Shown: positions 1,716 through 33,465, numbered from the stretch's first letter. The stretch: DNA of 64,000 nt from Candidatus Onthovivens merdipullorum (GCA_017694345.1 JADIMY010000117.1:17865-81864), one strand, 5' to 3'. The notes: generated by a model from the sequence alone, not told the origin. Numbers and translations are program-made.

Positions 1716-2787
1716 TTGAATTACCTGCTATTTTTTGTTCTTGGTCGTAATTAATTAAAGCATCAATAATAGAATCTAAGTCCCCTTCCATGACTCTATC
1801 GAGTTGTTGAATAGTGTATCCAATACGGTGATCAGTTACCCTATTTTGTGGGTAATTATAGGTTCTAATTTTTTCATTACGATCACCAGTACCTACTTTA
1901 CTACGATATTTAGCTTCTGTTTCATTTTTCTTTTCAATTTCAAGTTGAGCTAATTTACTAGCTAACATTTGCATACAAATCTCATGATTTTGAATTTGTG
2001 ATTTTTCAGTTTGACAACTTACAACAATTCCTGTAGGAATATGCGTAATTCTAACAGCAGACTCAGTTTTATTAACATTTTGTCCTCCAGCGCCTTGAGA
2101 TCTATAACGGTCAACTCTTAAATCAGCTGGGTCGATATGAACTTCATTTGTTTCAACTTCAGGCATAACAACTACTGTTGCTGTTGAAGTATGTATTCGA
2201 CCATTTGCTTCTGTTTTTGGAACTCTTTGAACTCTATGAACTCCACTTTCATATTTGAGTCTAGAATAAGCATTACTTCCACTTACAATAAATTGAATAT
2301 AGGAATAACCACCGACTCCACAAGGAGATTCATCTATCACTTTGAGTTTAAAATTTTTCTTTTCACAATATTTAAAGTACATTCTAAATAAATCACCAGC
2401 AAAAATATTAGCTTCGTCTCCACCGACTGCACCTTTTATTTCGAAAATGATGTTTTTACCATCATTAGGATCTTGAGGAATTAACAAAACTTTAATTTCA
2501 TTTTCTATCTTTTCCATTAAAGCACTATTAGCTTTAAATTCTTCTTTTCCCATTTGAGCTATATCTTCATCTTGATCACTTGACATAATTAAGGCATCAT
2601 CTTTATTTTTCTCTGCTACTTTATACTCTTTAAACTTATCAACAATTGGTTCTAAAAAGGACCTTTCTTTTGATAAAGATTTAAATTTATTCAAGTCACT
2701 AGTTATTTCACTACTTGCCAACATTTCATCGATTTCGTTTAATCTTTTTTCACTAGTAACTAGTCTATCTAACATATTTTTATCCAT
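1702..2787 (-). CDS. prfA: peptide chain release factor 1
   Basis: The 361-aa ORF has the GGQ motif (RSQGAGGQNVNKTESAVRITH) and is RF1-like over its full length. Confidence 0.95.
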   Translation of the reverse strand: MDKNMLDRLVTSEKRLNEIDEMLASSEITSDLNKFKSLSKERSFLEPIVDKFKEYKVAEKNKDDALIMSSDQDEDIAQMGKEEFKANSALMEKIENEIKVLLIPQDPNDGKNIIFEIKGAVGGDEANIFAGDLFRMYFKYCEKKNFKLKVIDESPCGVGGYSYIQFIVSGSNAYSRLKYESGVHRVQRVPKTEANGRIHTSTATVVVMPEVETNEVHIDPADLRVDRYRSQGAGGQNVNKTESAVRITHIPTGIVVSCQTEKSQIQNHEICMQMLASKLAQLEIEKKNETEAKYRSKVGTGDRNEKIRTYNYPQNRVTDHRIGYTIQQLDRVMEGDLDSIIDALINYDQEQKIAGNSNGTI

Positions 2788-2923
2788 AACTAACCTCGAT
2801 TAGTAAGTATAACAAAATCTATATTTAAATTAAATAATAGTAAATTTTTTATGAATTAATACCTCACAATTTCTATAACTATATTTAGATTTAAAAATCG
2901 TTTTATTGTATAATTTTAAAGGT

Positions 2924-4771
2924 ATGACATATCAAGCACTTTATAGAAAATATAGATCAAAAACTTTTGATGAAATAGTTGGTCAAGAAGCAATTATTAA
3001 AACATTAAAAAATGCTTTAAAACAAAATAAAATTGCTCACGCTTATTTATTTAGCGGACCTAGAGGAACAGGAAAAACTTCTATTGCTAGACTTTTAGCT
3101 AAAGCCCTTAATTGTGAAAAGGGAATTGGTTATCAATGTAACGAATGTGAAAACTGTAAAGCAATAAATACAGGTTCTCATCCTGATGTTATAGAAATCG
3201 ATGCTGCAAGTAATAATAGTGTTGATGATGCTAGAAGTTTAATTGAAAAAGTAAAATATTCCCCAATTTTAGGTCGTTATAAAGTTTATATCATCGATGA
3301 AGTTCATATGATGTCTAGTAGTGCATTTAATGCTTTACTTAAAACACTTGAGGAACCTCCTAGCTATGTAGTATTTATTTTATGTACTACCGAGCCTCAT
3401 AAAGTTTTACCAACCATTGTCTCTAGGTGTCAAAGATATGAATTTAAAAAAATTGATGACAAAGATTTAGTAAAACTAATTCAATCAGTTTTACTAAAAG
3501 AAAATGTTAAAGCTAGTGATGAAGCAATTAATTTAATCGTCGAATTAGCTAATGGTGGTGCTAGAGATGCTTTAAGTTTACTTGATCAAATTATTGCTTA
3601 TTCATCTAATCAAATTGAAGTTAAAGATATTGAAGATATATTTGGTTTAACTTCAATGAGTGAAAAAATAACATTAATTAAATTTATCTCTAAAGGTGAC
3701 ACTTTAAATGTTTTAAATAAATTAAATCAGTTTATTTCTAGAAACATTGATATCGATAAATTAGTAAATGAATTACTTCTCATATTTAAAGATGTTTTAA
3801 TTTATCAACAAACCGAATCTTTAGATTTATTATCTTTATTAAATGAGATTAATGTTAAAGATTTAAATAAAATATTTACTAGTGAAGAACTTAATTCTTT
3901 AATTTCTTTATTTATGGAATGTCAAAAAGAATTTAAGATTACAAATAATCCTTCATTTACTTTTGAAGTTTATTTATTAAAAGCTATTGAGATTTTTAAA
4001 GATATCAACCAATTAGATTTAAAAGTTACTAAACCTAAAAATGTTGAACCAGTTTCAACACAAACTACTAAGGAAAATATCATTAGTGAACCTGAAAAAG
4101 AATCTATTGAATTGAAAAATAAACCAATAATAGAAGAAACTAAAGCTGAAAATACTACTAATAATCTGCTAAAAGATAACTTGATAGATACTAACGCTAC
4201 TCAAGCCAATGAAGAATTAAAAGATATTGATATTTTTGATCCTAATAAAGAACTTGGGATTGAAGAAACGGAAACTCCAAAAACTGTCCAAAATACTCAA
4301 AAAGTGTCTAAAACTCAATTTAATTTACCAAAATTAGTAACTACTGGAGAAAAATATGTCATTGATGAAAATAATCTTATAAATATATTAGTCACTGCTG
4401 ATAAAAATGCTAGAAAAGATTTATCAAGTTCTTGGAATAAAATTGAACTTTATACAGATGATTCAGGTTCAATGGAAATTGCTAGACTATTAAGTGACTG
4501 CACTATCTTTGCTAAAAGTGATAAATACACAATTTTAGTTTGTGACTATGAAAAAGAAGAAACAACATTAAATAATGTCGAAAATCAAGATTCTATATCT
4601 AAATTTATCGCTACAATATCTAATACTAAAAAGTCATTTATTTATACTTTAGATAGAAAAAAGTATATTTCATTAAGGACAAAATATTTAAATCTTAATC
4701 AATTAGGAAAATTACCTAATAAAGACGATATAACAAAAATTGAAATAAATAAGGAGGAAATATCACAATGA
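2924..4771 (+). CDS. dnaX: DNA polymerase III subunit tau/gamma
   Basis: It has a Walker A (GPRGTGKTS), DEVH motif, zinc module (CNECENC) and SRC motif. I prefer the ATG at 2924 (MTYQALYRKYR, AAAGG 5 nt upstream) over the track's TTG at 2906. Confidence 0.9.
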   Translation: MTYQALYRKYRSKTFDEIVGQEAIIKTLKNALKQNKIAHAYLFSGPRGTGKTSIARLLAKALNCEKGIGYQCNECENCKAINTGSHPDVIEIDAASNNSVDDARSLIEKVKYSPILGRYKVYIIDEVHMMSSSAFNALLKTLEEPPSYVVFILCTTEPHKVLPTIVSRCQRYEFKKIDDKDLVKLIQSVLLKENVKASDEAINLIVELANGGARDALSLLDQIIAYSSNQIEVKDIEDIFGLTSMSEKITLIKFISKGDTLNVLNKLNQFISRNIDIDKLVNELLLIFKDVLIYQQTESLDLLSLLNEINVKDLNKIFTSEELNSLISLFMECQKEFKITNNPSFTFEVYLLKAIEIFKDINQLDLKVTKPKNVEPVSTQTTKENIISEPEKESIELKNKPIIEETKAENTTNNLLKDNLIDTNATQANEELKDIDIFDPNKELGIEETETPKTVQNTQKVSKTQFNLPKLVTTGEKYVIDENNLINILVTADKNARKDLSSSWNKIELYTDDSGSMEIARLLSDCTIFAKSDKYTILVCDYEKEETTLNNVENQDSISKFIATISNTKKSFIYTLDRKKYISLRTKYLNLNQLGKLPNKDDITKIEINKEEISQ

Positions 4772-5076: not shown

Positions 5077-5687
5077 TGGATGAATTAAAATCTATTGTAA
5101 ATTTAACCCTTGCTTTTAGTAAATTCCCTTCAATTGGCAACAAAACTGCCGAAAGAATGGCTTACGCTCTTTTAGATATGAAAAAAGAAGATATTGATAA
5201 TTTAGTTAAATCAATAGAGACTGTTGAAACTACAATTCATACTTGTCCTATTTGTGGCTCTTTAACCGAAAAAGAAACTTGTTCAATATGTTCTAATCCA
5301 AATAGAGATCACTCGATTTGTGTAGTCGTGAGCTATCCAAAAGATGTAATAACTTTTGAAAAAATGGGAGAATTTAAAGGAATTTATCATGTTTTAGGAG
5401 GCGAAATCTCAAGTTACCATGGAGTTACTCCTAAAGATTTATCAATTGATAAATTAGTTGAGCGAATAAAAAAAGATTCTATTAAAGAAATTGTTATCGC
5501 TACTAATCCAAGTGTTGAAGGTCAAACGACAGCTTTATATTTGACTGAGACTTTAAAAGATTTAAATATAAAAATCTCAAGAATCGGCTTTGGTATTCCT
5601 ATTGGTGGACAACTAGATTATGCGGATAGTTTGACTTTAAAAAGATCTTTTGAAAATCGTAAAGAAATTAAAGAGGATAAAGAATAA
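5076..5687 (+). CDS. recR: recombination protein RecR
   Basis: It has the C4 zinc finger (CPICGSLTEKETCSIC) and a Toprim domain and is 203 aa. Confidence 0.95.
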   Translation: MDELKSIVNLTLAFSKFPSIGNKTAERMAYALLDMKKEDIDNLVKSIETVETTIHTCPICGSLTEKETCSICSNPNRDHSICVVVSYPKDVITFEKMGEFKGIYHVLGGEISSYHGVTPKDLSIDKLVERIKKDSIKEIVIATNPSVEGQTTALYLTETLKDLNIKISRIGFGIPIGGQLDYADSLTLKRSFENRKEIKEDKE

Positions 5688-6313
5688 TGTTTATAAGTGC
5701 TGAAGGTGTTGAAGGTTGTGGAAAAACAACCATATTAAAAATGATTTATGAAAAACTTCTTAAAGAAGGTTATAAAGTTTTATTAGCTAGAGAACCTGGT
5801 GGAGTAAAAATTAGTGAACAAATTAGAAATATTATATTAAATAAAGAAAATACCGATTTAGATAATCGTAGCGAAGCACTTCTATTTGCAGCCAGTCGTA
5901 GACAATTGCTCGTAGAAAAAATATATCCTGCTTTAAATAATGGTTATATTGTTTTATGCGATCGTTTTGTTGATAGTTCTTTAGCTTATCAAGGTGGTGG
6001 TAAAGGCTTAGGGGTTGAAAATGTCTTAAATATTAATTTATTCGCTACTAATAACACATTACCAAATTTAACATTATTATTTGATATTGATCCTTCTTTA
6101 GGACTGGAAAGAATTAGGGAAAATAAAAATCGAGAAGTTAATAGACTAGATTTAGAAAGACTTGATTTTTATAATAAGGTAAGAAATACTTTTTTAGATT
6201 TATCTAAAAAATATAGTAATCGCTATTATGTTTTAGATGCTTCTAAATCAATTGATGAAGTATTCAATGAAGCATATAAAAAAGTAATTGAAGTAATTAA
6301 TGGAAATAATTGA
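5687..6313 (+). CDS. tmk: thymidylate kinase
   Basis: It has the P-loop EGVEGCGKTT, a DRF motif and the LID region and is 208 aa. Confidence 0.9.
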   Translation: MFISAEGVEGCGKTTILKMIYEKLLKEGYKVLLAREPGGVKISEQIRNIILNKENTDLDNRSEALLFAASRRQLLVEKIYPALNNGYIVLCDRFVDSSLAYQGGGKGLGVENVLNINLFATNNTLPNLTLLFDIDPSLGLERIRENKNREVNRLDLERLDFYNKVRNTFLDLSKKYSNRYYVLDASKSIDEVFNEAYKKVIEVINGNN

Positions 6314-7280
6314 ATATTTAGAAAAAAACCAGCAAATCCCATATAAAATTTTTGAAAATGCCTTATTAGGGCATAAATTTTTTCACGCTTATTTACTTAG
6401 TGGAAGTCAAGGAACACCTTTACTTGATATTGCTAAATTTTTGGCTAAATCAATGCTATGTGAAAATGCTCATCCTTTTGCTTGTAACACTTGTAACACT
6501 TGTAAAAGAATAGAAGAAAATATTTATGGTGATTTAATATTAATTGATGGAAAAAAAGGTAGTATCTTAAAAGATGAGATCTCTACTTTAATCGATTCTT
6601 TTTCTTTAACAGCTAGCGAGAAAAAAGGAATTAAAATTTATATCATAAATATAGTAGAAAACATGAATGTTGAAGCAACTAATGCATTACTTAAATTTTT
6701 AGAAGAACCACCTTTAGATACTTATGCAATTCTTACTACTTTTAATAAATATCGAATACTACCAACAATCTTAAGTAGATGTGAAATAATTAATTTTTCA
6801 TTGCTAAACCAAAAATATTTAATTGATGAATCACTTAAGCTTGGCGTAGCGATTGATGATTGTGAACTTCTATCTTTCTTTTATAACGATCCATCATATA
6901 TATTAAAAATAAGTCAAGACGAAGATTATCTAATATCTAAAAATGATATTTTAGAATTATTTAAAAATATCGAAAATAAAGAAAATTTGAGATTTTTTAT
7001 TGAACATAACTTACTTCCTAAACTAAAAGGAAAGGAAACAATTCGATATTTTTATGATAATACCATCGTCTTTTTTAAAGAAGCTTTAAAATATAAATCT
7101 AATAAAACAACTATTTTAAATAGTTATGTTAATATATTAAAAGAAATAATTAATAATGTATCAAATTTAGATAGATCGATATTAATATTAATTAATTCTC
7201 GTAATGAATTAAACTTTAACTTAAATACTTCATTACTAATATTAGAAAGTTTACTCGAAACTTTTGAGGTACATAAATGA
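6300..7280 (+). CDS. holB: DNA polymerase III delta-prime subunit
   Basis: It has a DnaX-like AAA+ fold with a degenerate P-loop (HAYLLSGSQGT) and a zinc module (CNTCNTC). It follows tmk as in Bacillus. Confidence 0.75.
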   Translation: MEIIEYLEKNQQIPYKIFENALLGHKFFHAYLLSGSQGTPLLDIAKFLAKSMLCENAHPFACNTCNTCKRIEENIYGDLILIDGKKGSILKDEISTLIDSFSLTASEKKGIKIYIINIVENMNVEATNALLKFLEEPPLDTYAILTTFNKYRILPTILSRCEIINFSLLNQKYLIDESLKLGVAIDDCELLSFFYNDPSYILKISQDEDYLISKNDILELFKNIENKENLRFFIEHNLLPKLKGKETIRYFYDNTIVFFKEALKYKSNKTTILNSYVNILKEIINNVSNLDRSILILINSRNELNFNLNTSLLILESLLETFEVHK

Positions 7281-8116
7281 ACGACTATTATGTAAGTGTA
7301 AAATTTGAAAACAATCCTAAATCTTATTACTTTTCATGTGATAATCCTTCTTTTAAAGTAGGTGATAACATCATTGTTGAAACTAGCATTGGAAAAGAAA
7401 TAGGAACAATTACTAAATCACCTGCTCCTATATCTAATTTAAAGTTTGATTTAGAACTTAAGCCAATTTTAAGAAAAGCATTAAAAAGTGACTTGAAAAT
7501 TAAAGAAGATAATAAAAAATTAGCATTAGAAGCTAAAGATTTATTTATTAAAGAATCTACTAAATTAAAATTAAATATGCGTTTTATTGACGCTCAATAT
7601 ACCTTAGATAGAACAAAAATTTTATTTACTTATGCAAGTGATGAAAGAGTAGATTTTAGAGAACTACTTAAGATATTAGCTTCTAATTTACATTGTAGAA
7701 TTGAATTAAAACAAATTAATTCAAGAGAAAGAGCTCAGTTAATTGGGGGAATAGGTACTTGCGGATTACCAATCTGCTGCACATTTTTCCAAACTACGGA
7801 AGGTATTTCTTTATCAAGAGCTAAAAATCAAATGTTAGCAATTAATATACCAAAATTAAGTGGCCAATGTGGAAAATTGATGTGTTGCCTTAAATACGAA
7901 GATGAACAATATACTGAATTAAAAAGGAAATTTCCTTCTATAAATTCTACCGTAACTTATGAAAAAGAAAATTATAAGGTTTTAGGTTTTAATGTCTTTT
8001 CAAAAATTCTAAAAATACAAAAAGATGATGATATTGAATTTGTTAATCTTAAAGACATTAGATATAACCCTAAGAAAGATTTAAATAAAAATGCAAAACA
8101 AACAAGTAAAGAATAA
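7277..8116 (+). CDS. yaaT: PSP1-domain protein YaaT/RicT
   Basis: The 279-aa ORF has a PSP1 C-terminal domain with the conserved Cys cluster (GTCGLPICC...CGKLMCC). It sits after holB as in B. subtilis. Confidence 0.75.
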   Translation: MNDYYVSVKFENNPKSYYFSCDNPSFKVGDNIIVETSIGKEIGTITKSPAPISNLKFDLELKPILRKALKSDLKIKEDNKKLALEAKDLFIKESTKLKLNMRFIDAQYTLDRTKILFTYASDERVDFRELLKILASNLHCRIELKQINSRERAQLIGGIGTCGLPICCTFFQTTEGISLSRAKNQMLAINIPKLSGQCGKLMCCLKYEDEQYTELKRKFPSINSTVTYEKENYKVLGFNVFSKILKIQKDDDIEFVNLKDIRYNPKKDLNKNAKQTSKE

Positions 8117-8921
8117 AGGAGTATTATACTTAGTTCCTACTCCAATTGGTAATATTAAAGATATAAGTGAAAGAGCTAAAGAAGTTTTTAGCTCAGTGAG
8201 TTATATTGCTTGTGAAGACACAAGAGTAACTTCAAAACTACTAAGTTTACTTAATATAAAAAATAAAACTTTTTCTTGTCATGAACATAACGAAATTGAA
8301 GCGAGTAATAAAATAATAAAAGATTTACTAGATGGTTTAGATGTTGCTTATTCTAGTGATGCAGGAATGCCATGTATTAGTGATCCAGGCGAAAAACTTG
8401 TAAAAGCCTGTATAAAAAATGGCATTAATGTTGTTCCTTTACCTGGTTCAAACGCTGCTCTAACGGCTTTAATTGCTAGTGGATTTAACACTTCACACTT
8501 CTATTTTTATGGCTTCTTAGATTCCAAAAATAGTAAAAAAAGTGAAGAATTGCATGGTTTAATAAAAATTAAAGACCCAATTGTTTTCTATGAATCACCA
8601 TTAAGAGTCAATGAAACCCTTAAAGAAATATATAGTGTTTTTGGAAATAGAAAAATTGTTATAGTTAGAGAACTTACTAAAATTTATGAAGAATTCATCC
8701 GAAGTGATTTAGAAGCTTTAATTAAGGAAAATAGAGTTTATAAAGGTGAAATTGTTTTAATTATTGAAGGTAATAATAAGGAAGAAAAAATAAATATAGA
8801 AGAAAAATTTGAAAAATTAAAAGCTAATAATTTTTCAAATAAAGATATAACGATTATTTTAAGTACTTTATATAAAATTAGTAAAAACGAAATTAAAAAA
8901 TATCTACTAGAAAATAACTAA
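8091..8921 (+). CDS. rsmI: 16S rRNA (cytidine1402-2'-O)-methyltransferase
   Basis: It has the tetrapyrrole-methylase-like fold (LYLVPTPIGN...) and the SDAGMPCISDPG motif. The start may lie a little downstream of the track's ATG, which overlaps yaaT by 26 nt. Confidence 0.85.
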   Translation: MQNKQVKNKGVLYLVPTPIGNIKDISERAKEVFSSVSYIACEDTRVTSKLLSLLNIKNKTFSCHEHNEIEASNKIIKDLLDGLDVAYSSDAGMPCISDPGEKLVKACIKNGINVVPLPGSNAALTALIASGFNTSHFYFYGFLDSKNSKKSEELHGLIKIKDPIVFYESPLRVNETLKEIYSVFGNRKIVIVRELTKIYEEFIRSDLEALIKENRVYKGEIVLIIEGNNKEEKINIEEKFEKLKANNFSNKDITIILSTLYKISKNEIKKYLLENN

Positions 8922-8925
8922 TTAA

Positions 8926-9282
8926 CTACTTGTCTTCTCCTTCATCTTCTTCTTTTATAGTTACTGGCGATAAACCATAAACTTTTTCAAGCGGTTGACT
9001 AAAAACAATGCCTTGTCCAGGAGTCTCTAATCCTGCAGCTTTATAAATAGAATTCATTACTTTTTCACATATTTCGTTATTAACAATAATTAAAACTATT
9101 TCTTTTTCGTTTTGAATAGGAACACCATAAAATTTTTCTAAATCAATATTCCCTGTCCCTCTAGCGTGGAGCGTCGTTCCACCTCTTGCTCCTGCATTTC
9201 TTGCTCCTTCCATTACTAAGTCAGTATTACCATTATTTACAATAGCTATAATTAAACTATATTTAATTTCTTCGTTTTCCAT
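8926..9282 (-). CDS. PII-like signal-transduction protein (DarA/DUF970-like)
   Basis: The 118-aa ORF has two PII-like beta-alpha-beta halves (IIAIVNNGN...ARGGTTLHARGTG; GQGIVFSQPLEKV) resembling the c-di-AMP receptor DarA/GlnB fold. Confidence 0.55.
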   Translation of the reverse strand: MENEEIKYSLIIAIVNNGNTDLVMEGARNAGARGGTTLHARGTGNIDLEKFYGVPIQNEKEIVLIIVNNEICEKVMNSIYKAAGLETPGQGIVFSQPLEKVYGLSPVTIKEEDEGEDK

Positions 9283-9285
9283 TAT

Positions 9286-9726
9286 CTATTTCTCCTTTTT
9301 AATATTGATCTTAGTATCAGTTAAAAATCTATACATTAAGACACTAGCAATCGAATTAAGTTTAGAAGTGAAAACTACTCCATTAGCATTTCTAGAAATC
9401 TTAAATCGATCTTCACAAACTTTAAATATAGGTTCAACAATATCTTCTTTAACTAAAGCAAAAACAATATCTTTTTTAGCTTCTCCTATTCCTAATAATT
9501 CATAAATTTCTACACTAGCAGTTCCATTTCCATTAACTAAAAAAGCAGTAGAAACATTAAAAGTATTTATTAAAGTTTTGATATAAAAATCTCCTTGTCC
9601 TTTATTTACAATAATACATAAAAGTTTTAAAGGAGTTACCTTATATTCATTATCATAAGGCGTAGTTTTTATATTTTTTTCTTTTGTTTTTGCTATTTTT
9701 TGTTCATTTATTTTCTTTTTAAACAT
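9286..9726 (-). CDS. PII-like signal-transduction protein (DarA-like), second copy
   Basis: The 146-aa ORF follows the DarA pattern (KLLCIIVNKGQGDFYIKTLINTFNVSTAFLVNGNGTAS). It lies 4 nt from the other PII-like gene. Confidence 0.5.
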   Translation of the reverse strand: MFKKKINEQKIAKTKEKNIKTTPYDNEYKVTPLKLLCIIVNKGQGDFYIKTLINTFNVSTAFLVNGNGTASVEIYELLGIGEAKKDIVFALVKEDIVEPIFKVCEDRFKISRNANGVVFTSKLNSIASVLMYRFLTDTKINIKKEK

Positions 9727-9735
9727 AATAAATAC

Positions 9736-11280
9736 CTAAAAATGAATAATTTGTGCATCATTTTCTTCCATTAAGCTTCTTCTAGCAACCATATTAAGAC
9801 GCTTAGATTTAATAATGCTTACTAAACCTAAAATCTCGATCATTAAAGTTGGTAAAATTTGAATTAAACCTAATACACCAAACCCACTTCCGTCAGCACT
9901 ATTTTGACTAGCATATATCCCTATTACAAGTGGCAAAACAAAACAACTAGACATAGGACCAGTTGCTACGCCACCACTATCAAAACCTATACCAACATAA
10001 ATATCTGGAACAAATATCGCAAGTATAATCGTTAATAAATAAATCGGGACATAATAATAAAGTATACTAAAATCATTTCCCCAAATCGCTCTAATTACCG
10101 ATAAAACAATAGCAATACTAACTCCAAGTGCTAAAGCAATATATAATGCTCTTTTACTAATGGTACCAGTTGAAACTTCTTCAACTTGATGAGCTAAAAC
10201 TTTAATTGCAGGTTCAACTAAAACAATCGAAATACCAATTACTAAAGCAATAATAATTAATATATAAGAATAATTTAAACCACCATCTATGATTCCTTTT
10301 CCTAAACCAAAACCAATTGGAATTAAGCCAATATTTGCAGCAATTAAAAACATTGCTATGCCAATATATGAACATAAAAATCCTAAAAAAATCTTTCCTA
10401 ATTCTTTAAGTTTTAATCTAATAAAAATAAGCTGATAAATTAAAAATATTAAAGCGATAGGTAAAATTGCAAATAGACATTCTTTTAATACACTCACTAA
10501 TGTTTCGACAAAACTAGGATCGGTATCGATAGAATTCTTTATATCATCAAATGCTCCACTATTTTGAATAAATAAAAACATTAATAAAATTGTAATGATA
10601 GGTCCAATCGAACAAAAACCAGAAACGCCAAAAGAATCACTATTATTATTTTTACCACCTCTAACACTAGCAACACTTGCTCCAAATGTCAGTAAAAAAG
10701 GAATAGTTATTGGTCCTGCTGTAACTCCGCTACTATCAAAAGCAATTTCAATAATTGCCCCATGACTACCGAATAAACAAGCTAATGCAAATATTATAAA
10801 GTGAAATAAAATAATCCAGAGTTTCATTGACTTTTGAAAAATAATTCTAAGTAGACCAAAAGCTAAAAATAAACCAACTCCAACTCCGACAACTATTTTA
10901 AAAATCCAGGCATTAAAAAATTTACCAACCAAATCACCTAAAACAGTTAAATCTGGCTCAGCAATTGTAATAAACATTCCTAGTAAAATTGCTAAAAAAA
11001 CAATTAAAAATATTTTCTTCTTTTTAGTAATAGATGCCCCTATATAACTTCCTACTTTAGCCATTGATGACTCACTACCTAAAGAAAATAAAGTAGTACC
11101 AAGTCCTAAAAAGACCATACATAACAAAAATATTCCAAAATTAGCTGGCTCAATAACGACACTAGGAAACATTGGAGTGTATTGTAAGCCAAATAAAATA
11201 GATATAATTACAACAATTGGAATCAAAGATAAAAATGATTCTTCTAAAGTTTTTATTAAATTTCTTGCTTTCTCTAACAT
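9736..11280 (-). CDS. polytopic membrane protein, internally duplicated (DUF1538-like)
   Basis: The 514-aa ORF has about 12 predicted TM helices, and its two halves are clearly similar (GSGFGVLGL vs SFGVSGFCS; GFDSGGVATGP vs FDSSGVTAGP). It is co-directional with the two PII-like genes. Confidence 0.55.
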   Translation of the reverse strand: MLEKARNLIKTLEESFLSLIPIVVIISILFGLQYTPMFPSVVIEPANFGIFLLCMVFLGLGTTLFSLGSESSMAKVGSYIGASITKKKKIFLIVFLAILLGMFITIAEPDLTVLGDLVGKFFNAWIFKIVVGVGVGLFLAFGLLRIIFQKSMKLWIILFHFIIFALACLFGSHGAIIEIAFDSSGVTAGPITIPFLLTFGASVASVRGGKNNNSDSFGVSGFCSIGPIITILLMFLFIQNSGAFDDIKNSIDTDPSFVETLVSVLKECLFAILPIALIFLIYQLIFIRLKLKELGKIFLGFLCSYIGIAMFLIAANIGLIPIGFGLGKGIIDGGLNYSYILIIIALVIGISIVLVEPAIKVLAHQVEEVSTGTISKRALYIALALGVSIAIVLSVIRAIWGNDFSILYYYVPIYLLTIILAIFVPDIYVGIGFDSGGVATGPMSSCFVLPLVIGIYASQNSADGSGFGVLGLIQILPTLMIEILGLVSIIKSKRLNMVARRSLMEENDAQIIHF

Positions 11281-11282
11281 AT

Positions 11283-12209
11283 TTATTTAACTAATTTGCT
11301 AAATTCTTTAGGTAAGACCTTGCAAAACCTCATTATTTTTTTAGAAATTGGATGAATAAAAGACAATTCATATGCATCTAAACACAGTCTATTAATTGGA
11401 TTAGGTGGCTCCCCATATTTATCGTCTCCTAAAACATAATGACCTAAACTTCCTAATGTTACTCTTATTTGATTTTTTCTACCTGTTTCAATATGCACAT
11501 CGACTAAACTATATTCTTTATTTTCTTTAAGAACTTTATAATTAGTAATACATTTTAATGAATTCTTTTTATCTTTAGTAACATACATTAAATTAAGGGA
11601 ATTTTGTCTTAAATAATTTTCAATACGTCCTTCTTTTTCTTTAAATACACCTTCACAAACAGCGTAGTATCCTCTAGTTTTAACTAATGTATTCCAATCT
11701 TTTTGAAGTAAATTTCTTAATTTTTCATTTTTTGCAAACATTAATATACCACTAGTTTCTTTATCGATCCTATGCACAACAAATATACGGTTATGTTTAT
11801 CTTTTTGTTGGACATAATCCATTACCATTCGATAGGCAGTACTTGATTTTTCTTTATCGCTAGCAATAGAAAGTAATCCATAAGGTTTATCTATTACAAT
11901 AAATTCATCATCTTCATAAATAATAGGTAAATTACTTCTTTCTTTCTTTTTTATAGGTCTTTTTGAGATTATTAAAGCATCACCTTTACTTAAAGAAAAA
12001 TCAAATTGAGAAATAGGAGCTCCATCAATTGAAACTAAATGATGTGATAATAAATTTTTAGCATTATTTCTACTAAAACCTAAATTATTAGTTAAGTAAT
12101 CTAATAATAATGAATTTTCTTTTACTACATATTGTTTTATATCTAATTTTTTAGGTTTTGAGTTATTTTCTTTTCTATTTTTTAAGTTTTCTTTATAGTT
12201 TTTATTCAT
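11283..12209 (-). CDS. RluA-family 23S rRNA pseudouridine synthase (RluD-like)
   Basis: It has an S4 domain plus the catalytic HRIDKETSG motif. I chose the ATG at 12209 (MNKNYKE...), giving an 8-nt overlap with the upstream gene end. Confidence 0.8.
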   Translation of the reverse strand: MNKNYKENLKNRKENNSKPKKLDIKQYVVKENSLLLDYLTNNLGFSRNNAKNLLSHHLVSIDGAPISQFDFSLSKGDALIISKRPIKKKERSNLPIIYEDDEFIVIDKPYGLLSIASDKEKSSTAYRMVMDYVQQKDKHNRIFVVHRIDKETSGILMFAKNEKLRNLLQKDWNTLVKTRGYYAVCEGVFKEKEGRIENYLRQNSLNLMYVTKDKKNSLKCITNYKVLKENKEYSLVDVHIETGRKNQIRVTLGSLGHYVLGDDKYGEPPNPINRLCLDAYELSFIHPISKKIMRFCKVLPKEFSKLVK

Positions 12210-13164
12210 CTTTATATGGTAATAAATGGGCAGCCCCAATAATTCCTGCATCATTTCCTAATGTTGCTATAACGATATCAACTTTAGGACTATTACGATA
12301 TCCATAATGTCTATCTTCACAATATTTTATAACTTTATTTAAAAGATACTCTTTTTGATTAGAAATACCTCCTCCAATTACTACAACATTAGGTCTAAAA
12401 ATATTACAAAAATTTAAGATGCCTTCGCCTAAATATTTAATATAAGTGTCAACAACAATATTAGCAGCTTTATCGCCTTTTTTAGCACATTCAAAGGAAG
12501 TTAATCCATTCACATTATCTAAAGAATTATTAGCGTATTCCCACATTAAAGATTCTTTATGTTCATACATTATTTTTTTAGTTAAATAAATCAAAGCACT
12601 AGCACTAGCATAAACTTCAAAACATCCTTTTCTACCGCAAGAACAATCTCGACCATCAACAACAATAACATGATGTCCAAGTTCAGCACCTTTTCCTTCA
12701 ATTCCTTCAAAAAGTTTATTGTCGATGACTACTCCTCCACCAACGCCTGTTCCTAAAGTTAATAAAATAACATCACTTTTTCCTTTAGCTGCACCAAATT
12801 TTTGTTCGGCAAGACAAGCAACATTAGCATCATTAGATAAATAAATCTCAACTCCTAAATCTTTTAAATATTCTTTTAAAGGAACATATTCAAATCCAAG
12901 ATTACATGCGTAATCTATAGTTCCTAACTTGTTATTTACTACTCCGGGTATACCAAAACCAACACCAGTCACTTTTAAATCGTTTTCTTTAGCGATATTT
13001 ATTAATTCAATAAGTTGTTCTTTAATAAGCTTTAAAAAAGCAAGTTGACCTTCTTTTTGATTAGTTTTTCTAGTATTTCTAAATAAAATATTTCCTTTAG
13101 AATCTACAACTCCTGCTTTTATACTCATTCCACCAACATCGACACCAATATTTACGCTTTTCAT
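12202..13164 (-). CDS. glcK: ROK-family glucokinase
   Basis: It has the ROK signature, the zinc motif CSCGRKGCFE and an N-terminal ATPase motif (GVDVGGMSIKAGVV). Confidence 0.8.
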   Translation of the reverse strand: MKSVNIGVDVGGMSIKAGVVDSKGNILFRNTRKTNQKEGQLAFLKLIKEQLIELINIAKENDLKVTGVGFGIPGVVNNKLGTIDYACNLGFEYVPLKEYLKDLGVEIYLSNDANVACLAEQKFGAAKGKSDVILLTLGTGVGGGVVIDNKLFEGIEGKGAELGHHVIVVDGRDCSCGRKGCFEVYASASALIYLTKKIMYEHKESLMWEYANNSLDNVNGLTSFECAKKGDKAANIVVDTYIKYLGEGILNFCNIFRPNVVVIGGGISNQKEYLLNKVIKYCEDRHYGYRNSPKVDIVIATLGNDAGIIGAAHLLPYKDE

Positions 13165-13346: not shown

Positions 13347-15479
13347 CTATCTATAAATACCGATTAATAAGTAGTAACTAGTTACATCATTATTAGTACT
13401 TTCTCCAGTTGCTCCATAATAATATGTATTTGTTGTGGTTTCTTTATAAAATTCAATACCACTAGAATTAGTACCAGCATTAGCGTAACCACTATTATTA
13501 AGAGCTTCATAATATTTATTATAAGCTTCTTCTGCTTCTTCTAAAGTATCGTAATATAAAGTTAAATTAACTCTATTATTAGTTCCATCGTAGTATTGAC
13601 TAACAGTAACAGGTTTATAATCTGTTTCACCTATTAAAGTTTCTAGTCCAGGGACTACTAGGTTTTCATTTTGTAAACGAGCTTTAATCTTATTAATAAC
13701 ATCATTATATCCCGTTGTTACATTAGTTGTAGCATTATAATAAATTTGCACTGTCATTTTTTGAGAATCACTATCGTAAATAACAATAATTGTGTAATAT
13801 CCATCAACACTATTAAATGTTGGGCAACTTGTATTTTCGAAAACTGTATCACTAACTCTTTCCCATTCATTAGTATTTACTAAAGTTTCTAAATATGCGT
13901 TATATGTTTCGGTAGTTACTTCAGTTCCAATTATATAATATGTATAAGAAATGCTTGATGACCCGTTATTTAAATAGCCACTTCCATAGCTATATGCATC
14001 AAATTTAGGAATATTAGTAATTGTTCCTCCACCAATATTTTGATTTCTAAACCAAACGGAAGCTCTATCAAAAGCTGTATCGTGATGGAAATATACTACG
14101 GTTGCTATAGATGTATTTAAATCAATGTATCTATCTTCTTCATAGTATTGAATTCTAATACCATACTCTTCAGTAGGACTATAACAAGTATAACTATAGT
14201 AATTAGATAAATCGGACATCGATATATTCCATCCCTTTTCTTCTAAATCGAGCATAATATTATCTAATTGTTTTGTAGTTAAACCAAAAATATTTAATCC
14301 AGGGCCAGTATAAGATGAATAAGTATAACCTAATATAACTCCATAAAGTTTTGCACCGTCAAATAAAGGATAAGTATCTGTAGGATATTCAAAATTTGTA
14401 TATTCGGCATAACTTTCACTAAGAGATTCTTCATCAATACTAGAAGTTGCTACACTATAAGTTGCAATATAAAGCATTTCATTAGTAACACCTTCTAAAT
14501 TTCGAAATAAAGGAACATTACTAACACTACCAATCTGTGTTACAGCACTACCGAATTGATCCACATACATATTAGTTCCAGCTAATTGGAAATTATTATT
14601 TTCTAAATAATCTCCTAAACTCGTAACAGGGTCTAAATCGCTACTTTTTGGAGTATAAAAAATTGTCTTAAAAGTAATATCGCCATTAGTAACTTCTCTA
14701 GTTAAAAACTTATTATCAATATTATCTTTATCATTTTCAGCTAACAGAAAAGAATCATCATTTATGTACAGTGAATAATCAATCCCAGCAAAATTACTAG
14801 CAAAATATTTGCTAGGAAATTTGCCTATTTCATCATTAAACCTATAAGAAACTACTAGATTTCTACTACTTTCATCACAATTTAATTCTAGTAAGTAACT
14901 TTCTGTAGTATCTAAATATGTATTATCACTTACTAAAGTATAATGATAATCATCGACTAAATTTTGCAAATAAGTATCATATGTAGATTGCGAAACATTT
15001 TCAAAAGTAAAAGAATTCAAATTTGTTTTATCTACACTAATACGATCAGTTTTAAGTAAAGGGATGGGAGAAATATCTAATGTTTCGTAAGTTCCTAAAT
15101 AAGAAGAAACTGTTTCTTTTACTTCACTAGGAAAATCTTTATAAGCAATCCCAGCATAAACTTGGATGTCTTCATTTATAGGTGTGTCATAAGAAAAAAC
15201 ATTTACATCATTTTCTCCTCTATTTAACTCATTAGCATCTTGAATTGTGTAATACCATCCTTCAAGTTCATATTTATCATCACTAATAAAATCATCTAAT
15301 TCACTTGTATCAGTAGTTACATCATAAATAGTTTCACCTTTAGGAACATTTATTTTAAAATTTTCACCAGTTTGTAAATTAGAAAATAAAACTTCATAAG
15401 TCTCACTTTCGTTATTGCAAGAGGCTAAGCCTCCAAGAAGGCTTAGTCCTAATATTGGAATTATTTTTTTAAATTGCAT
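13347..15479 (-). CDS. surface lipoprotein with Listeria-Bacteroides-type repeat, Y/N/T-rich
   Basis: It has a signal peptide with lipobox LASC (MQFKKIIPILGLSLLGGLASC) and the GWY repeat motif (YELEGWYYT). It is 710 aa, with GGAGGT 8 nt upstream. Confidence 0.7.
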   Translation of the reverse strand: MQFKKIIPILGLSLLGGLASCNNESETYEVLFSNLQTGENFKINVPKGETIYDVTTDTSELDDFISDDKYELEGWYYTIQDANELNRGENDVNVFSYDTPINEDIQVYAGIAYKDFPSEVKETVSSYLGTYETLDISPIPLLKTDRISVDKTNLNSFTFENVSQSTYDTYLQNLVDDYHYTLVSDNTYLDTTESYLLELNCDESSRNLVVSYRFNDEIGKFPSKYFASNFAGIDYSLYINDDSFLLAENDKDNIDNKFLTREVTNGDITFKTIFYTPKSSDLDPVTSLGDYLENNNFQLAGTNMYVDQFGSAVTQIGSVSNVPLFRNLEGVTNEMLYIATYSVATSSIDEESLSESYAEYTNFEYPTDTYPLFDGAKLYGVILGYTYSSYTGPGLNIFGLTTKQLDNIMLDLEEKGWNISMSDLSNYYSYTCYSPTEEYGIRIQYYEEDRYIDLNTSIATVVYFHHDTAFDRASVWFRNQNIGGGTITNIPKFDAYSYGSGYLNNGSSSISYTYYIIGTEVTTETYNAYLETLVNTNEWERVSDTVFENTSCPTFNSVDGYYTIIVIYDSDSQKMTVQIYYNATTNVTTGYNDVINKIKARLQNENLVVPGLETLIGETDYKPVTVSQYYDGTNNRVNLTLYYDTLEEAEEAYNKYYEALNNSGYANAGTNSSGIEFYKETTTNTYYYGATGESTNNDVTSYYLLIGIYR

Positions 15480-15495
15480 ATTAATTTACCTCCAG

Positions 15496-18400
15496 TTATA
15501 AGGTAAATGAACCATCTGAGCAAGTAACAGTTACATTATTTGCCGCTGGAATTCCACAATTTCTATTTGCTTCAAGTACAGCTCTAGCTTGTTCCATTGT
15601 TCCATTAAATGTAATTTCACTTAGATTTGTACAACTCGAGAAAACATAGCTTTCTATCGTAATTTCAGGATTTTCGAAAGTTAATTTAGTTAAACTTGAA
15701 CATCCAGAAAACGCATAAGTTGCAACATCTGTAACATTAGCTGGGAGTACAATTTCTGTTAAAGATTTACAATTATAGAACATCCTATTTGATATAGAAG
15801 TAAAGTTTTCATTTGTTGGCAAAGCAATAGATTGCAAAGCACTTCCTTCAAATGCACTACTTCCAATTTCTGTTACTCCACTAATATCAAAATTCAATGT
15901 TTGTAGTGATGTAGTCGATTTAAATGCAGAACTTTGTATTATTTTTAATTGTCCAACTTCAAGTCCTTCAATAGTAGTAAAGTCAGCACAAGAATCAAAT
16001 GTTTGAGTTGGGATTTCGCTAAATGTAGGATCTTCAACTTTTAATTTAACTAAGCTACTATGAGCAAATATTTGTGATCCATCAAGTTTTTGACCTGCTT
16101 TTAATGTAAATTCCGTAATTCCAGTTCCATAAAATGCGTAATTATCAAAACTAGTGATAGTTGCAGGTAATTCAGATAAATTTAAGCTTGAACAATTATA
16201 AAACATCATTCCGCTTATTACTGTTAAATTAGCTGGTAAAGTAACACTTGTTAATTTAGTACACCCATTAAATATACCTGTTCCAATATCGACTAAACTA
16301 TCAGGTAGAACTATAGAAACTAAGCCAGTATTACTGAAAACATTATTTCCTAAAGTAGTTAAAGTATTTGGTAAAGTTATACTTTCTAAAGCATTACATC
16401 CATAAAATGCATACTCTTCGATAGTGGTTAACCCATTTGGTAATCCAACAGTAGCTAAATTTGAACATTCATTGAATAAATAGCTTGGTATAACTTCTCT
16501 AGTTCCAATAAATGTTGCGCTAGTTAATTGAGAACATCCATAAAATACGCTCGTATCTAATGTAGCATTTTCAGGAATTGTAACTTCAGTTAACCCTGTA
16601 GTTCTAAATGCACTATTTCCAATTGTAGTAAGTGTCGCAGGAAGTGTCATATTTATTAAATGCGAACAACCATTAAATGCATCTTTTCCAATAACTTGTA
16701 AATTTGTTAATTTAGAAATATCAACAGTTTCTAAAGTTGTACATCTTTTAAACATTGATTCACTAATAGTTGTAAATTCAGGATTATTAAATGTAGCTTT
16801 TGTTAATCCACTACAAGAACTAAACACTGACTCATTAGTTAATCCAGTATTATAAATAACTTCATTAATATTTGAACAAGAATTAAAAGCACTAGCTCCT
16901 AAATAAGTTAAGTCACTATTTAAAGTAACTGTCCCAGTAATACCTTTACAACTACTAAAGGCACTATCACCAATATATGTTAAGCTAGAAGGAACATTCA
17001 TTGTTTCTACCTTACTCATATTTTGGAAAGCTTGATTAGCAACTTCTTTTAAAGTATCTGGCAATGTCACACTACCAGTAACTCCACTCATACCATAGAA
17101 AGCTCTTTCTCCTACTTTTTCTAAATTAGAAGATAAAACTAATGATGTAATCTTGCTTTTTCCACTTAAGAAATAAGGATTAACTTCTTTAACAGTATCT
17201 GGCATCACATAACTTGTGGCTGTATTTTTAATATCAAGCCAGAATAAAGCTTTAGTTTGATCTTTGTTATAAACAGCAAGACCATCTTCTCCAATACTAA
17301 TCTTAGTATTATTTTCACTTACTTTGATTTCAGCTAAATTACTACAACCATTAAATATATCACTACCGAAGTTTTCCATATTTGCGCCAAAGGTAAACGA
17401 AATTATTCCAGAACAGCTCTTGAAAGCTCCATCACCAATAGTAGTAACACTATCAGGCATAACTAAAGTTCTTTGCATGTCCTTTTTACTAATTGTAGAT
17501 TGAAAGGCATAATTCCCAATTTCTTCTAATTTATCATTAAATTCGAAGTGTGTACCTTCATTATCATAAATTCTACAAGTATAGAATGCATAATCATCAA
17601 TTTTTGTAACATTAGCTCCAAATACAATTGTTCTAAAACTATAAATATTTTTAAATGCATAAGGAGCGATCTCTATAACCTCATCACGAATCGTATATGA
17701 CGTATTAGGAATTACTTCACCATTTTCATCTTTTCCTAAATAAAAAGGAACTCTTACAAGTATTTTCTTTCCAGCAGTATATAAAACTCCATCTTCATCA
17801 ACTTCATAATTAGTACATCCTGGAGTTAATCCAAATGCTTTAATCATACCACTAGAATTGCTTATATTACCAAAAGCATTTCCAATTGCTTCAATAGTCA
17901 TATTTTGTCCAATATTTACATATTGAAGTGAACCACAGCCAGTAAAACAATCTTCACCAACATTAGTTAATGAGTTAGGAAATGTTACTTCTACTAATTT
18001 TGAGCAACTTTGGAAAACACTTTCACCCAAAGTAGTTAAACTTGTTTCTTTATCAGCTTGGAAATCTACGCTTACTAAATTAGTACAACTTTGGAAAGCT
18101 GAATCAGCAATTGTAACCACACTTGTTGGAATTAATAAATTTGTAAGAGCTTTACAATTTTTAAAAGCACTATCGCCAATTGAAACTAAACCTTCATTTA
18201 ATGTTAAGGTTTCCATTTTTTCATTGTAATAAAAAGCATTAGCACCAATTTCTTTAATATTTGCCCCTAAAGTTACAGAAGTAATTTTTCTACCATAACT
18301 TCCTGAAGTATTTGCATAAAAAGCCTCTTCTCCAATTGCAACAATTGGTAAACCTTGGAATGTATCAGGAATTACAAGGTCTGTATGAGGATTACCTTCT

Positions 18401-19131: not shown

Positions 19132-19144
19132 AATTATTACCTCA

Positions 19145-33375: not shown

Positions 33376-33465
33376 GGAGAAATACCCAAGTGGTTTAAGG
33401 GGACGGTCTCGAAAACCGTTAGGAGTGAATAGCTCGCAGGGGTTCAAATCCCCTTTTCTCCGCCA
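33376..33465 (+). tRNA. tRNA-Ser (anticodon CGA)
   Basis: It has a GGAGAAA/TTTCTCC acceptor stem, a CTCGAAA anticodon loop, a long variable arm, the TTCAAAT T-loop and an encoded CCA. Confidence 0.9.

Follow-up and report, generated by a model that had tools for sequence, protein, structure and literature searches.

A near-obligate pairing of DUF1538 membrane proteins with PII-like proteins, represented by a three-gene cassette of Candidatus Onthovivens merdipullorum

The 64,000-nucleotide stretch of Candidatus Onthovivens merdipullorum DNA analysed here (GCA_017694345.1, JADIMY010000117.1:17865-81864; referred to as the window, with positions counted from its first letter) has a GC content of ~26% and harbors three open reading frames (ORFs) arranged head to tail on the minus strand, which encode a DUF1538 membrane protein, M, and two small PII-like proteins, S2 and S1. 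The loci nearest to that of the window were found in metagenome-assembled genomes (MAGs) labelled by their depositors as Bacilli. An earlier reading of the sequence alone (the original prediction) had described three adjacent ORFs of 514, 146, and 118 amino acids (aa), and these were recovered as such; the peptides it had quoted are present in the 146-aa protein (KLLCIIVNKGQGDF...) and in the 118-aa protein (GQGIVFSQPLEKV). The same three gene calls with the same flanks were obtained in a 98%-identical relative (two independent metagenome assemblies); looking up M by its exact sequence retrieved no record. The features of the cassette are as follows:

9736..11280, minus strand: M, 514-aa polytopic membrane protein with two DUF1538 domains (Pfam PF07556, twice)
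9286..9726, minus strand: S2, 146 aa, divergent PII-like protein; first gene after M
8926..9282, minus strand: S1, 118 aa, PII family (Pfam PF00543), DUF1538-associated clade
9291..9296, minus strand: AGGAGA Shine-Dalgarno sequence for S1, within the final codons of S2, read from the sequence

M and S2 are separated by 9 nt and S2 and S1 by 3 nt, which corrects the 4-9 nt given earlier. The position of AGGAGA inside S2 points to translational coupling of S1 to S2.

The conservation of this arrangement was evaluated in two surveys. Species-representative genomes were scanned with the M profile, and the best 80 of 596 confirmed loci, ranked by M similarity only, were retained; for metagenome contigs, a proteobacterial split-type subunit of DUF1538 served as the seed, and again the best 80 loci were kept. 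Both surveys thus comprise the 80 best of more than 550 confirmed matches, with distant DUF1538 clades under-sampled; locus ORFs were called by a simple longest-ORF rule, and MAG taxonomy follows the labels of the depositors. In the genome survey, a gene or domain of S2 type was present immediately downstream of M on the same strand in all 80 loci, and a gene or domain of S1 type came next in 78, the contig ending after the S2-type gene in the other two (L016 and L054). S2 and S1 were fused into one protein of 224-279 aa in ~10 of the 80. Five of the 80 metagenome loci had no room downstream, and PII domains were found directly downstream in 74 of the other 75. A neighbourhood survey of this kind had been called for along with the original prediction, and its outcome places the reading of the locus as a transporter with a PII-like regulator, in the manner of SbtA/SbtB (or AmtB/GlnK), on the firm ground of conserved adjacency. 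The main architectures encountered in the metagenome loci were as follows:

38 loci: fused M with one tandem double-PII protein
13 loci: split A/B subunits with one S1-type PII
3 loci: split A/B subunits with two PII genes
3 loci: split A/B subunits with one tandem double-PII protein
1 locus: fused M with two PII genes (the form of the window)

The same arrangement was seen in all five annotated plasmid or chromid records. The Methylocystis and Chelativorans plasmids carry DUF1538, DUF1538, and then a "P-II family nitrogen regulator," and in Paraclostridium, Peptoclostridium, and Vescimonas the gene after a fused DUF1538 gene encodes a double PII of 222-224 aa. The adjacency of DUF1538 and PII is nearly absolute across phyla and gene architectures, i.e., near-obligate, and that of M, S2, and S1 is far beyond chance. 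Other recurrent neighbours were scarce: a rlu-like gene adjoined the cassette in 8 of 79 loci and lay upstream of it in 7, and the only neighbour to recur more often, an ABC ATPase, had no fixed position. Clustering of the neighbours in these loci revealed neither a conserved third partner nor a hint of a substrate. As the flanking genes are not conserved, the cassette is self-contained.

Some of these loci lie on mobile elements. In Methylocystis rosea, the mobilizable plasmid NZ_CP044330.1 carries the split DUF1538 genes with their PII (L081:846-6013) between IS66 and IS4 transposases, with a 1.8-kb unannotated gap (locus 2451-4255) ahead of the cassette, a LysR regulator ~2.4 kb upstream of it, and a gene for a SulP anion transporter nearby. 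In Chelativorans, a conjugative plasmid carries the cassette close to genes for heavy-metal P-type ATPases. Evidently, the cassette is mobile. Separately, a locus that looked like a duplicated convergent cassette (L060:4000-9977) was rejected: it is a perfect inverted repeat of 2,989 nt with no spacer, almost certainly a fold-back assembly artefact of the MAG.

Pfam analysis of M detected two DUF1538 stretches (E 2.5e-98) and no soluble signalling domain. The two halves were 24% identical to each other (BLASTP E 8e-9), in agreement with the internally duplicated DUF1538 protein proposed earlier. Alignment-averaged hydrophobicity showed 7+7 segments, i.e., 14 predicted transmembrane (TM) helices, and the AlphaFold2 model built with 65 homologues was all-helical, with a mean predicted local distance difference test score (pLDDT) of 88.6 and a predicted TM-score (pTM) of 0.88. 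The loops assigned to the inside carried ~16.7 lysine or arginine (K/R) residues per sequence and the remaining loops ~3.5; loops rich in K/R in either half have K/R-poor equivalents in the other. Since K/R residues are enriched in opposite alternate loops of the two halves, both termini of M are predicted to be cytoplasmic (N-in, C-in) and its two 7-TM repeats to be inverted in the membrane. Inverted repeats are the typical arrangement of secondary transporters. The halves, named by comparison with UmpA and UmpB, the two subunits of the only characterised DUF1538 relative found in the literature, and the motifs at which helices are broken are located as follows:

10573..11280, minus strand: M half 1, residues 1-236, counterpart of UmpA; seven predicted TM helices running from inside to outside
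9739..10512, minus strand: M half 2, residues 257-514, counterpart of UmpB; seven predicted TM helices running from outside to inside
10951..10962, minus strand: AEPD motif, TM3 break; E108 invariant and D110 conserved at 89% (65 sequences)
10711..10740, minus strand: FDSSGVTAGP motif, TM6 break; D182 invariant
10207..10218, minus strand: VEPA motif, TM3' break, half-2 counterpart of AEPD; E356 conserved at 98%
9955..9984, minus strand: FDSGGVATGP motif, TM6' break; D434 invariant

The NCBIfam UmpA model aligned to residues 7-234 of M and the UmpB model to residues 260-491. The K/R-rich loops of half 1 comprise residues 68-90, 146-153, and 206-220. In the structural model, the helices are interrupted at AEPD (H90-106/H109-118), FDSSGVTAGP (H174-185/H192-207), VEPA (H335-355/H357-369), and FDSGGVATGP (H426-439/H442-457). 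Proteobacterial split-type B subunits carry the two half-2 motifs without variation as well. Neither a PDB profile search nor Foldseek (best E 0.04, TM-score at most 0.25) identified a solved relative of M, so that its mechanism is not inferable from the fold. Pfam assigned M to DUF1538 alone, and SbtA was absent from the top 50 Foldseek matches listed.

UmpAB of Halomonas zhaodongensis is a DUF1538 protein pair that acts as a two-component Na+(Li+,K+)/H+ antiporter (PMC5484666). Its subunits rescue Escherichia coli KNabc when co-expressed and co-immunoprecipitate as a heterodimer, and Na+(Li+,K+)/H+ antiport that depends on pH was measured in everted vesicles (PMC5484666). The fragment used for cloning stopped at umpB, and no PII gene was mentioned or assayed in that work (PMC5484666). 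Our literature search found no link between DUF1538 and PII. UmpAB resembles M in the Pfam family (PF07556), in being built of two homologous 7-TM units that act together, and in the acidic and Gly-rich motifs kept in split-type B subunits; it differs in being a heterodimer, whereas M is a single fused polypeptide. M scored 121.1 bits with the equivalog model NF041627 (UmpA; cut-off 490) and 120.5 bits with NF041628 (UmpB; cut-off 500). By its sequence, M belongs to the DUF1538/UmpAB family but is not an equivalent of UmpAB. The original prediction had left the substrate as unknown, which calls for a qualification: antiport has been measured for one member of the family, UmpAB (PMC5484666), and M falls well below the UmpAB cut-offs.

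S1 scored 36.4 bits against the Pfam P-II family (PF00543; cut-off 25) and could be aligned end to end with the PII protein of Thermus thermophilus, and its PDB sequence matches were PII/GlnK proteins. Its relatives are labelled "P-II family nitrogen regulator" in RefSeq, and the best PDB relative of the S1 family profile was NifI1 of 9p1x (E 1.1e-6). The conserved motifs of S1 are G-A-x-G-G-T, (A/G)RGT(A/G), an invariant K60, which is the counterpart of K58 in GlnB, and G-Q-G-I-A/V-F in place of the canonical G-D-G-K-I-F.

S2 had no match in Pfam or NCBIfam, and its relatives are annotated as hypothetical proteins. A word-indexed search with the single S2 sequence returned only a 99% twin, and homologues were reached with an alignment derived from the loci; an exhaustive search with the resulting profile gave 1,306 clusters (50% identity) at E <= 1e-10, among them two-domain proteins of 220-280 aa. 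S2 was 22% identical to S1 (E 8e-6), hhalign matched the S2 family profile to that of S1 with a probability of 98.2% (E 3e-14), and weak matches to PF00543 were obtained for 8 of 32 S2 orthologues (best E 3.8e-5). A PDB sequence search with S2 alone yielded nothing meaningful. The AlphaFold2 model showed a double beta-alpha-beta fold in the core (pLDDT ~85-90), with the elements E33-41, H45-56, E60-67, E84-93, H94-110, and E117-122, and its best Foldseek matches were PotN, CPII, GlnK1, and SbtB, all with probability 1.0. Sequence comparison and the model identify S2 as a diverged paralogue of S1 with a predicted PII fold. That both small proteins are PII-like, as first proposed, is therefore borne out by Pfam for S1 and, for S2, by homology to S1, hhalign, and AlphaFold2/Foldseek. 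S2 is divided as follows:

9640..9726, minus strand: S2 N-terminal tail, residues 1-29, Lys-rich and predicted to be disordered
9307..9639, minus strand: S2 PII-like core, residues 30-140: beta-alpha-beta, short T-loop, beta-alpha-beta, C-terminal helix

The tail has a pLDDT below 50 for residues 1-27 and contains 9 K+R in 29 residues; its length varies from ~0 to 60 residues among orthologues, and it is missing from the fused double-PII proteins. The tail may touch the membrane or the acidic face of M. The T-loop of the core is short with a helical turn, and the conserved motifs are GxGTA, LGL, K85, and GxGIAF.

Comparison of the ligand site with that of canonical PII proteins revealed both retained and lost elements. 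The Gly-rich base of the T-loop (G-T-G/A) and a G-x-G-I-A-F B-loop are kept in the S1 and S2 families, the lysine equivalent to K58 is invariant in both (K60 in S1, K85 in S2), and S1 retains the adenine-side G-x-x-G-x-T as G-A-x-G-G-T. The PROSITE B-loop signature PS00638, [ST]-x(3)-G-[DY]-G-[KR]-[IV]-[FW]-[LIVM], which includes K90, was found in 0 of 32 S1 and 0 of 73 S2 sequences, and the same was true of the T-loop signature PS00496, which includes Tyr51; the controls, E. coli GlnB and T. thermophilus PII, matched. The patterns and the GlnB control sequence were used in what we take to be their standard form. In place of GDGK, S1 has GQGI and S2 has G-K/N-G-I/V. Canonical PII proteins have a T-loop of ~19 residues with the modification site Tyr51 and with R38/Q39 at its base; the T-loop of S1 is ~5 residues shorter in the HMMER alignment, and N45/I46 occupy the R38/Q39 positions. 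R101 and R103 are replaced in S1 (...VYGLS, as compared with ...VYRIR in T. thermophilus; family consensus VVGL) and in S2 (S-x-I-G). K90, R101, and R103 are ATP-binding residues of canonical PII, and R101/R103 bind the phosphates. With these three residues lost, established knowledge of the ligand site disfavours canonical Mg-ATP/2-oxoglutarate sensing, and the effector is probably not sensed in that way. The single PII beside split DUF1538 pairs follows the same pattern (AGAxGGT, GRGxG, EPEKEI, PGxGIAF), and since this pattern is common to S1 and to the single PII of split systems, it defines a DUF1538-associated PII clade.

The relationship between the two small proteins was evident from their fusions. 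Fusions of 219-284 aa, always in the order S2 then S1, were found in the ~10 genome loci mentioned above, in most metagenome loci with fused M, and also in Paraclostridium, Peptoclostridium, and Vescimonas. These recurrent fusions argue for a physical association of the two domains. S1, which stands alone beside split DUF1538 pairs, would be the ancestral partner and S2 a strongly diverged duplicate. S1 and S2 most likely form one heteromeric PII-like complex, for which NifI1/NifI2 provide a solved precedent of a PII heterotrimer. The idea of one PII paralogue for each half of M was rejected, because split A/B systems usually have a single PII and the halves face opposite sides of the membrane.

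The cassette was compared with known PII systems. In GlnK-AmtB and SbtB-SbtA, as in the cassette, a PII-fold gene directly follows that of the transporter, with conserved linkage. Structures of GlnK1 and SbtB are matched by the S2 model, and the T-loop is conserved within the family. The likeness to SbtA/SbtB is one of organisation only, by analogy. M belongs to a different transporter family and fold from AmtB and SbtA, being DUF1538 only with no PDB match; the single GlnK or SbtB contrasts with two unequal PII paralogues or a tandem fusion; and S1/S2 have a shorter T-loop and lack K90, R101, R103, and the PROSITE signatures. AmtB and SbtA form trimers matching the PII trimer, whereas M is known here from its sequence and a monomer model. 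Similarly, NifI1/NifI2 are adjacent PII paralogues that form a 2:1 heterotrimer inhibiting nitrogenase, with asymmetric ligand pockets (PDB 9p1x; PMC12439982). They resemble S1/S2 as two adjacent unequal PII paralogues with one target, and the T-loop of NifI1 is also short. They differ in their target (NifDK as opposed to a membrane protein) and in keeping the ATP/ADP/2-oxoglutarate residues (PMC12439982), which S1/S2 do not; no nif genes were found in the window or among the recurrent neighbours. Also, the 1:1 fusions of the cassette argue against a simple 2:1 ring of the NifI type.

Non-canonical PII-like proteins tied to transport or metabolism provide further parallels. PotN (pot polyamine ABC-transporter operon, 7o4x) and CPII (carboxysome-associated, 5d4l) were, like S2, non-canonical PII-like proteins and were the top Foldseek matches of the S2 model (E ~1e-4, TM-score to target 0.68-0.74); they were, however, absent from the PDB sequence matches and have different partner genes. 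PII-NG, a PII clade encoded alongside cation/proton efflux pumps of the CzcABC type (Sant'Anna et al., 2009, as summarised in PMC7726332), resembles the S1 clade in that a non-canonical PII is tied genomically to a proton-coupled cation exporter. It differs in its partner, an RND pump and not DUF1538, and in having a single PII gene upstream of the pump.

The best explanation of these observations is an ion-coupled DUF1538 transporter gated by a dedicated, probably heteromeric, PII-like regulator, which we regard as reasonably likely as a whole. M would be a secondary ion-coupled transporter of 14 helices in two inverted 7-helix repeats, in which E108, D182, E356, and D434 on the broken helices most likely form the ion or proton sites of an alternating-access exchanger. 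By analogy with UmpAB, its activity would most likely be monovalent cation/H+ exchange. S1 and S2 would be cytoplasmic PII-fold proteins dedicated to M, whose complex would bind a small effector in the clefts between subunits. Through its short conserved T-loops, the complex would attach to the cytoplasmic side of M and turn transport on or off, in the way that GlnK acts on AmtB and SbtB on SbtA. With K90, R101, and R103 lost but the adenine-side motifs and K58 retained, a non-canonical effector is proposed; an adenine nucleotide with fewer phosphates, or another metabolite, would be more likely than Mg-ATP with 2-oxoglutarate. We infer in this way the physical complex of S1, S2, and M, the gating by T-loops, the class of ligand, and the substrate. 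Our confidence is highest for the core, a dedicated PII-like regulator of a DUF1538 transporter, which we hold to be very probable, and falls for the assignment of cation/H+ as the substrate, which rests on analogy and is at best an even call.

Several observations weigh against this explanation. One metagenome locus (L102) has room downstream and yet no PII. There, a DUF1538 B-type subunit (L102:202-2504) is followed by small unrelated ORFs, and the locus could be a decayed or rearranged cassette. The 1:1 fusion of S2 and S1 fits a three-subunit ring poorly, and split systems function with one PII, which leaves the need for S2 unexplained. M is ~30% identical to the proteobacterial split subunits, and at this identity, and far below the equivalog cut-offs, the transfer of substrate from UmpAB is weak. 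For UmpAB, too, the activity is known from one study only, by heterologous complementation (PMC5484666).

These last points bear on an alternative in which M carries a cargo other than alkali cations, e.g., bicarbonate, ammonium, a metal, or a small organic ion, and the antiport of UmpAB is a side activity or one specific to its clade. PII-like partners regulate transporters as diverse as AmtB, SbtA, NrtABCD, and PotABCD (PDB descriptions; PMC10945777), M is only distantly related to UmpAB, and UmpAB was assayed through a gain-of-function screen with E. coli KNabc as the host and no PII partner. The genomic neighbours give no hint of a substrate, and genes for a LysR regulator and a SulP transporter lie within ~5 kb of the Methylocystis cassette. 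On the other hand, carboxylates buried in the membrane where helices break, of which M has four, are found most typically at sites for cations or protons, DUF1538 is among the ion-transport Pfams picked by a machine-learning model for optimal growth pH (PMC13255231), a weak indication, and no alternative substrate is directly supported. We consider a different cargo unlikely, though worth keeping in view.

The identity of the regulator was likewise open to another interpretation, since the original prediction had labelled the small proteins as DarA-like and suggested gating by a nucleotide or c-di-AMP. In the c-di-AMP version, S1 and S2 would be c-di-AMP receptors of the DarA/PstA type, and the transporter would be gated by c-di-AMP like several K+/osmolyte transporters of Firmicutes. 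DarA/PstA share with S1/S2 a PII-like ferredoxin fold and a Firmicute host, and the low GC content and the Bacilli-labelled nearest loci suit such a host; c-di-AMP commonly controls cation transport in Firmicutes. Also, SbtB, a PII-like protein which is not DarA, binds c-di-AMP (7obj among the Foldseek matches), and the loss of triphosphate-binding residues is compatible with a ligand other than ATP. The DarA family itself found no support in the analysis: S1 and S2 had no match to PF06153 at E <= 0.1, nor had 32 S2 orthologues at E <= 0.01, and DarA/PstA structures were absent from the top 50 Foldseek matches of S2 and from the PDB sequence matches listed, among which the nearest relatives were GlnK, NifI1, CPII, PotN, and SbtB. 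DarA/PstA have an enlarged B-loop and a reduced T-loop relative to PII. The B-loop of S1 aligns without gaps to that of canonical PII and the S2 model has ~6 residues between helix 94-110 and strand 117-122, i.e., a B-loop of ordinary PII length and not the loops of the DarA/PstA type. The same S1-type PII is the partner of DUF1538 in Alphaproteobacteria, in which c-di-AMP signalling is uncommon. With no DarA family match, an ordinary B-loop, and non-DarA relatives, c-di-AMP gating is without specific support, and we regard it as improbable. The earlier interpretation was right in kind, a PII-like regulator with a transporter, and wrong in its label.

A further possibility is that M is a membrane sensor or scaffold whose state is passed on to cytoplasmic targets by the PII-like proteins. 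It is common for a PII protein to have several targets, which would suit such a relay, and no solved structure resembles M. We hold this to be very improbable, as inverted repeats, broken helices, and buried conserved acidic residues are the hallmark of a transporter, UmpAB mediates cation/H+ exchange (PMC5484666), and M carries no soluble domain for signalling. The notion that S1 and S2 are ordinary nitrogen regulators (GlnB/GlnK/NifI-type) beside an unrelated membrane protein by chance, for which the score of S1 above the P-II threshold, the RefSeq label of its relatives, and the closeness of the S1 family to NifI1 in the PDB might speak, is effectively refuted by the linkage to DUF1538 across phyla and architectures, with neither amtB nor glnA nor nif genes next to the cassette of the window or among recurrent neighbours and with the PROSITE PII signatures, Tyr51, K90, R101, and R103 all missing.

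A DUF1538 transporter with its dedicated PII-like regulator thus remains the preferred explanation, and it extends the original prediction in three respects, namely, that the halves of M are inverted, that the paralogues are unequal and often fused, and that pairing with PII is a property of the DUF1538 family as a whole. The theme of PII proteins acting on transporters is already familiar; the pairing of DUF1538 with PII, its near-universality, an S2 family that lacks annotation, and a regulator in heteromeric or tandem form appear undescribed. A wider proposal can be made, on which we place slightly less than even weight: DUF1538 transporters and S1-type PII proteins would constitute an obligate two-part machine spanning phyla, with a shift of effector, and the S2 of Firmicutes would make of its PII a heteromer or tandem with asymmetric ligand sites. 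If so, this would be the largest uncharacterised PII-transporter system, with a membrane fold that has no solved relative; a PII clade would have given up canonical ATP/2-oxoglutarate sensing for a different effector; S1/S2 would be the first NifI-like heteromeric PII acting on a transporter; and the published activity of UmpAB would be that of a transporter deprived of its regulator.

Few signal processors in biology are as widespread as PII proteins, and each new target (AmtB, SbtA, the Nrt/Pot transporters, nitrogenase) has shown transport or catalysis tied to energy and metabolite status. The DUF1538 family, with one biochemical paper and no solved structure, almost always has a PII clade of its own. 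The pairing provides a handle on both function and regulation of a membrane protein common in gut Firmicutes and a reason to revisit UmpAB together with its missing regulator. The forms with one PII, two PII genes, and a tandem PII offer a natural series for the evolution of heteromeric PII proteins, and the altered binding pocket of the DUF1538-associated clade predicts a non-canonical effector.

In the window, two genes lie upstream of M in the same direction:

11283-12254, minus strand: RluA/RluD-type pseudouridine synthase (Pfam), ending 2 nt before M
12202-13164, minus strand: ROK-family kinase or regulator (Pfam), co-directional and upstream of M

Both may be co-transcribed with M, and they are local context outside the conserved cassette. 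The two ORFs overlap by 53 nt as listed (12202-12254), and the start of the pseudouridine synthase is probably over-called; in the 98% relative it is called 3 nt (one codon) inward, giving 322 aa as compared with 323. On the other side, the stop of S1 (minus strand) and that of a convergent rsmI-like methyltransferase gene (8091-8921, plus strand) are 4 nt apart (8921-8926). No terminator was predicted between the two genes, and there is no space for one, so that their transcripts must overlap or end inside the opposing gene. In the scan for promoters and terminators, promoter-like sites were scarcer than in shuffled controls, and no terminator was predicted at either end of the cassette.

The window also contains a thymidylate kinase gene (5687-6313), which overlaps a holB-like gene (6300-7280) by 14 nt. 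The interval between tmk and holB is where Bacillus subtilis has darA (yaaQ) and yaaR, and DarA is not known to be encoded beside a transporter. As the tmk and holB-like genes of the window overlap, this slot is empty and no DarA is present at the classical position.

Farther upstream of the cassette, four consecutive large ORFs of 710, 1211, 594, and 602 aa occupy positions 13347-22709 on the minus strand. The 710- and 1211-aa proteins have lipoprotein-like N-termini (e.g., ...LGGLASC, ...LLSGC), and the 1211-aa protein matched the BspA-type leucine-rich repeats of Pfam (E 9e-162), the other three having no Pfam match; judging from these sequences, the run may be a surface-protein island. The sole RNA gene detected by Rfam/ARAGORN in the window was a tRNA-Ser (anticodon CGA) at 33376-33465.

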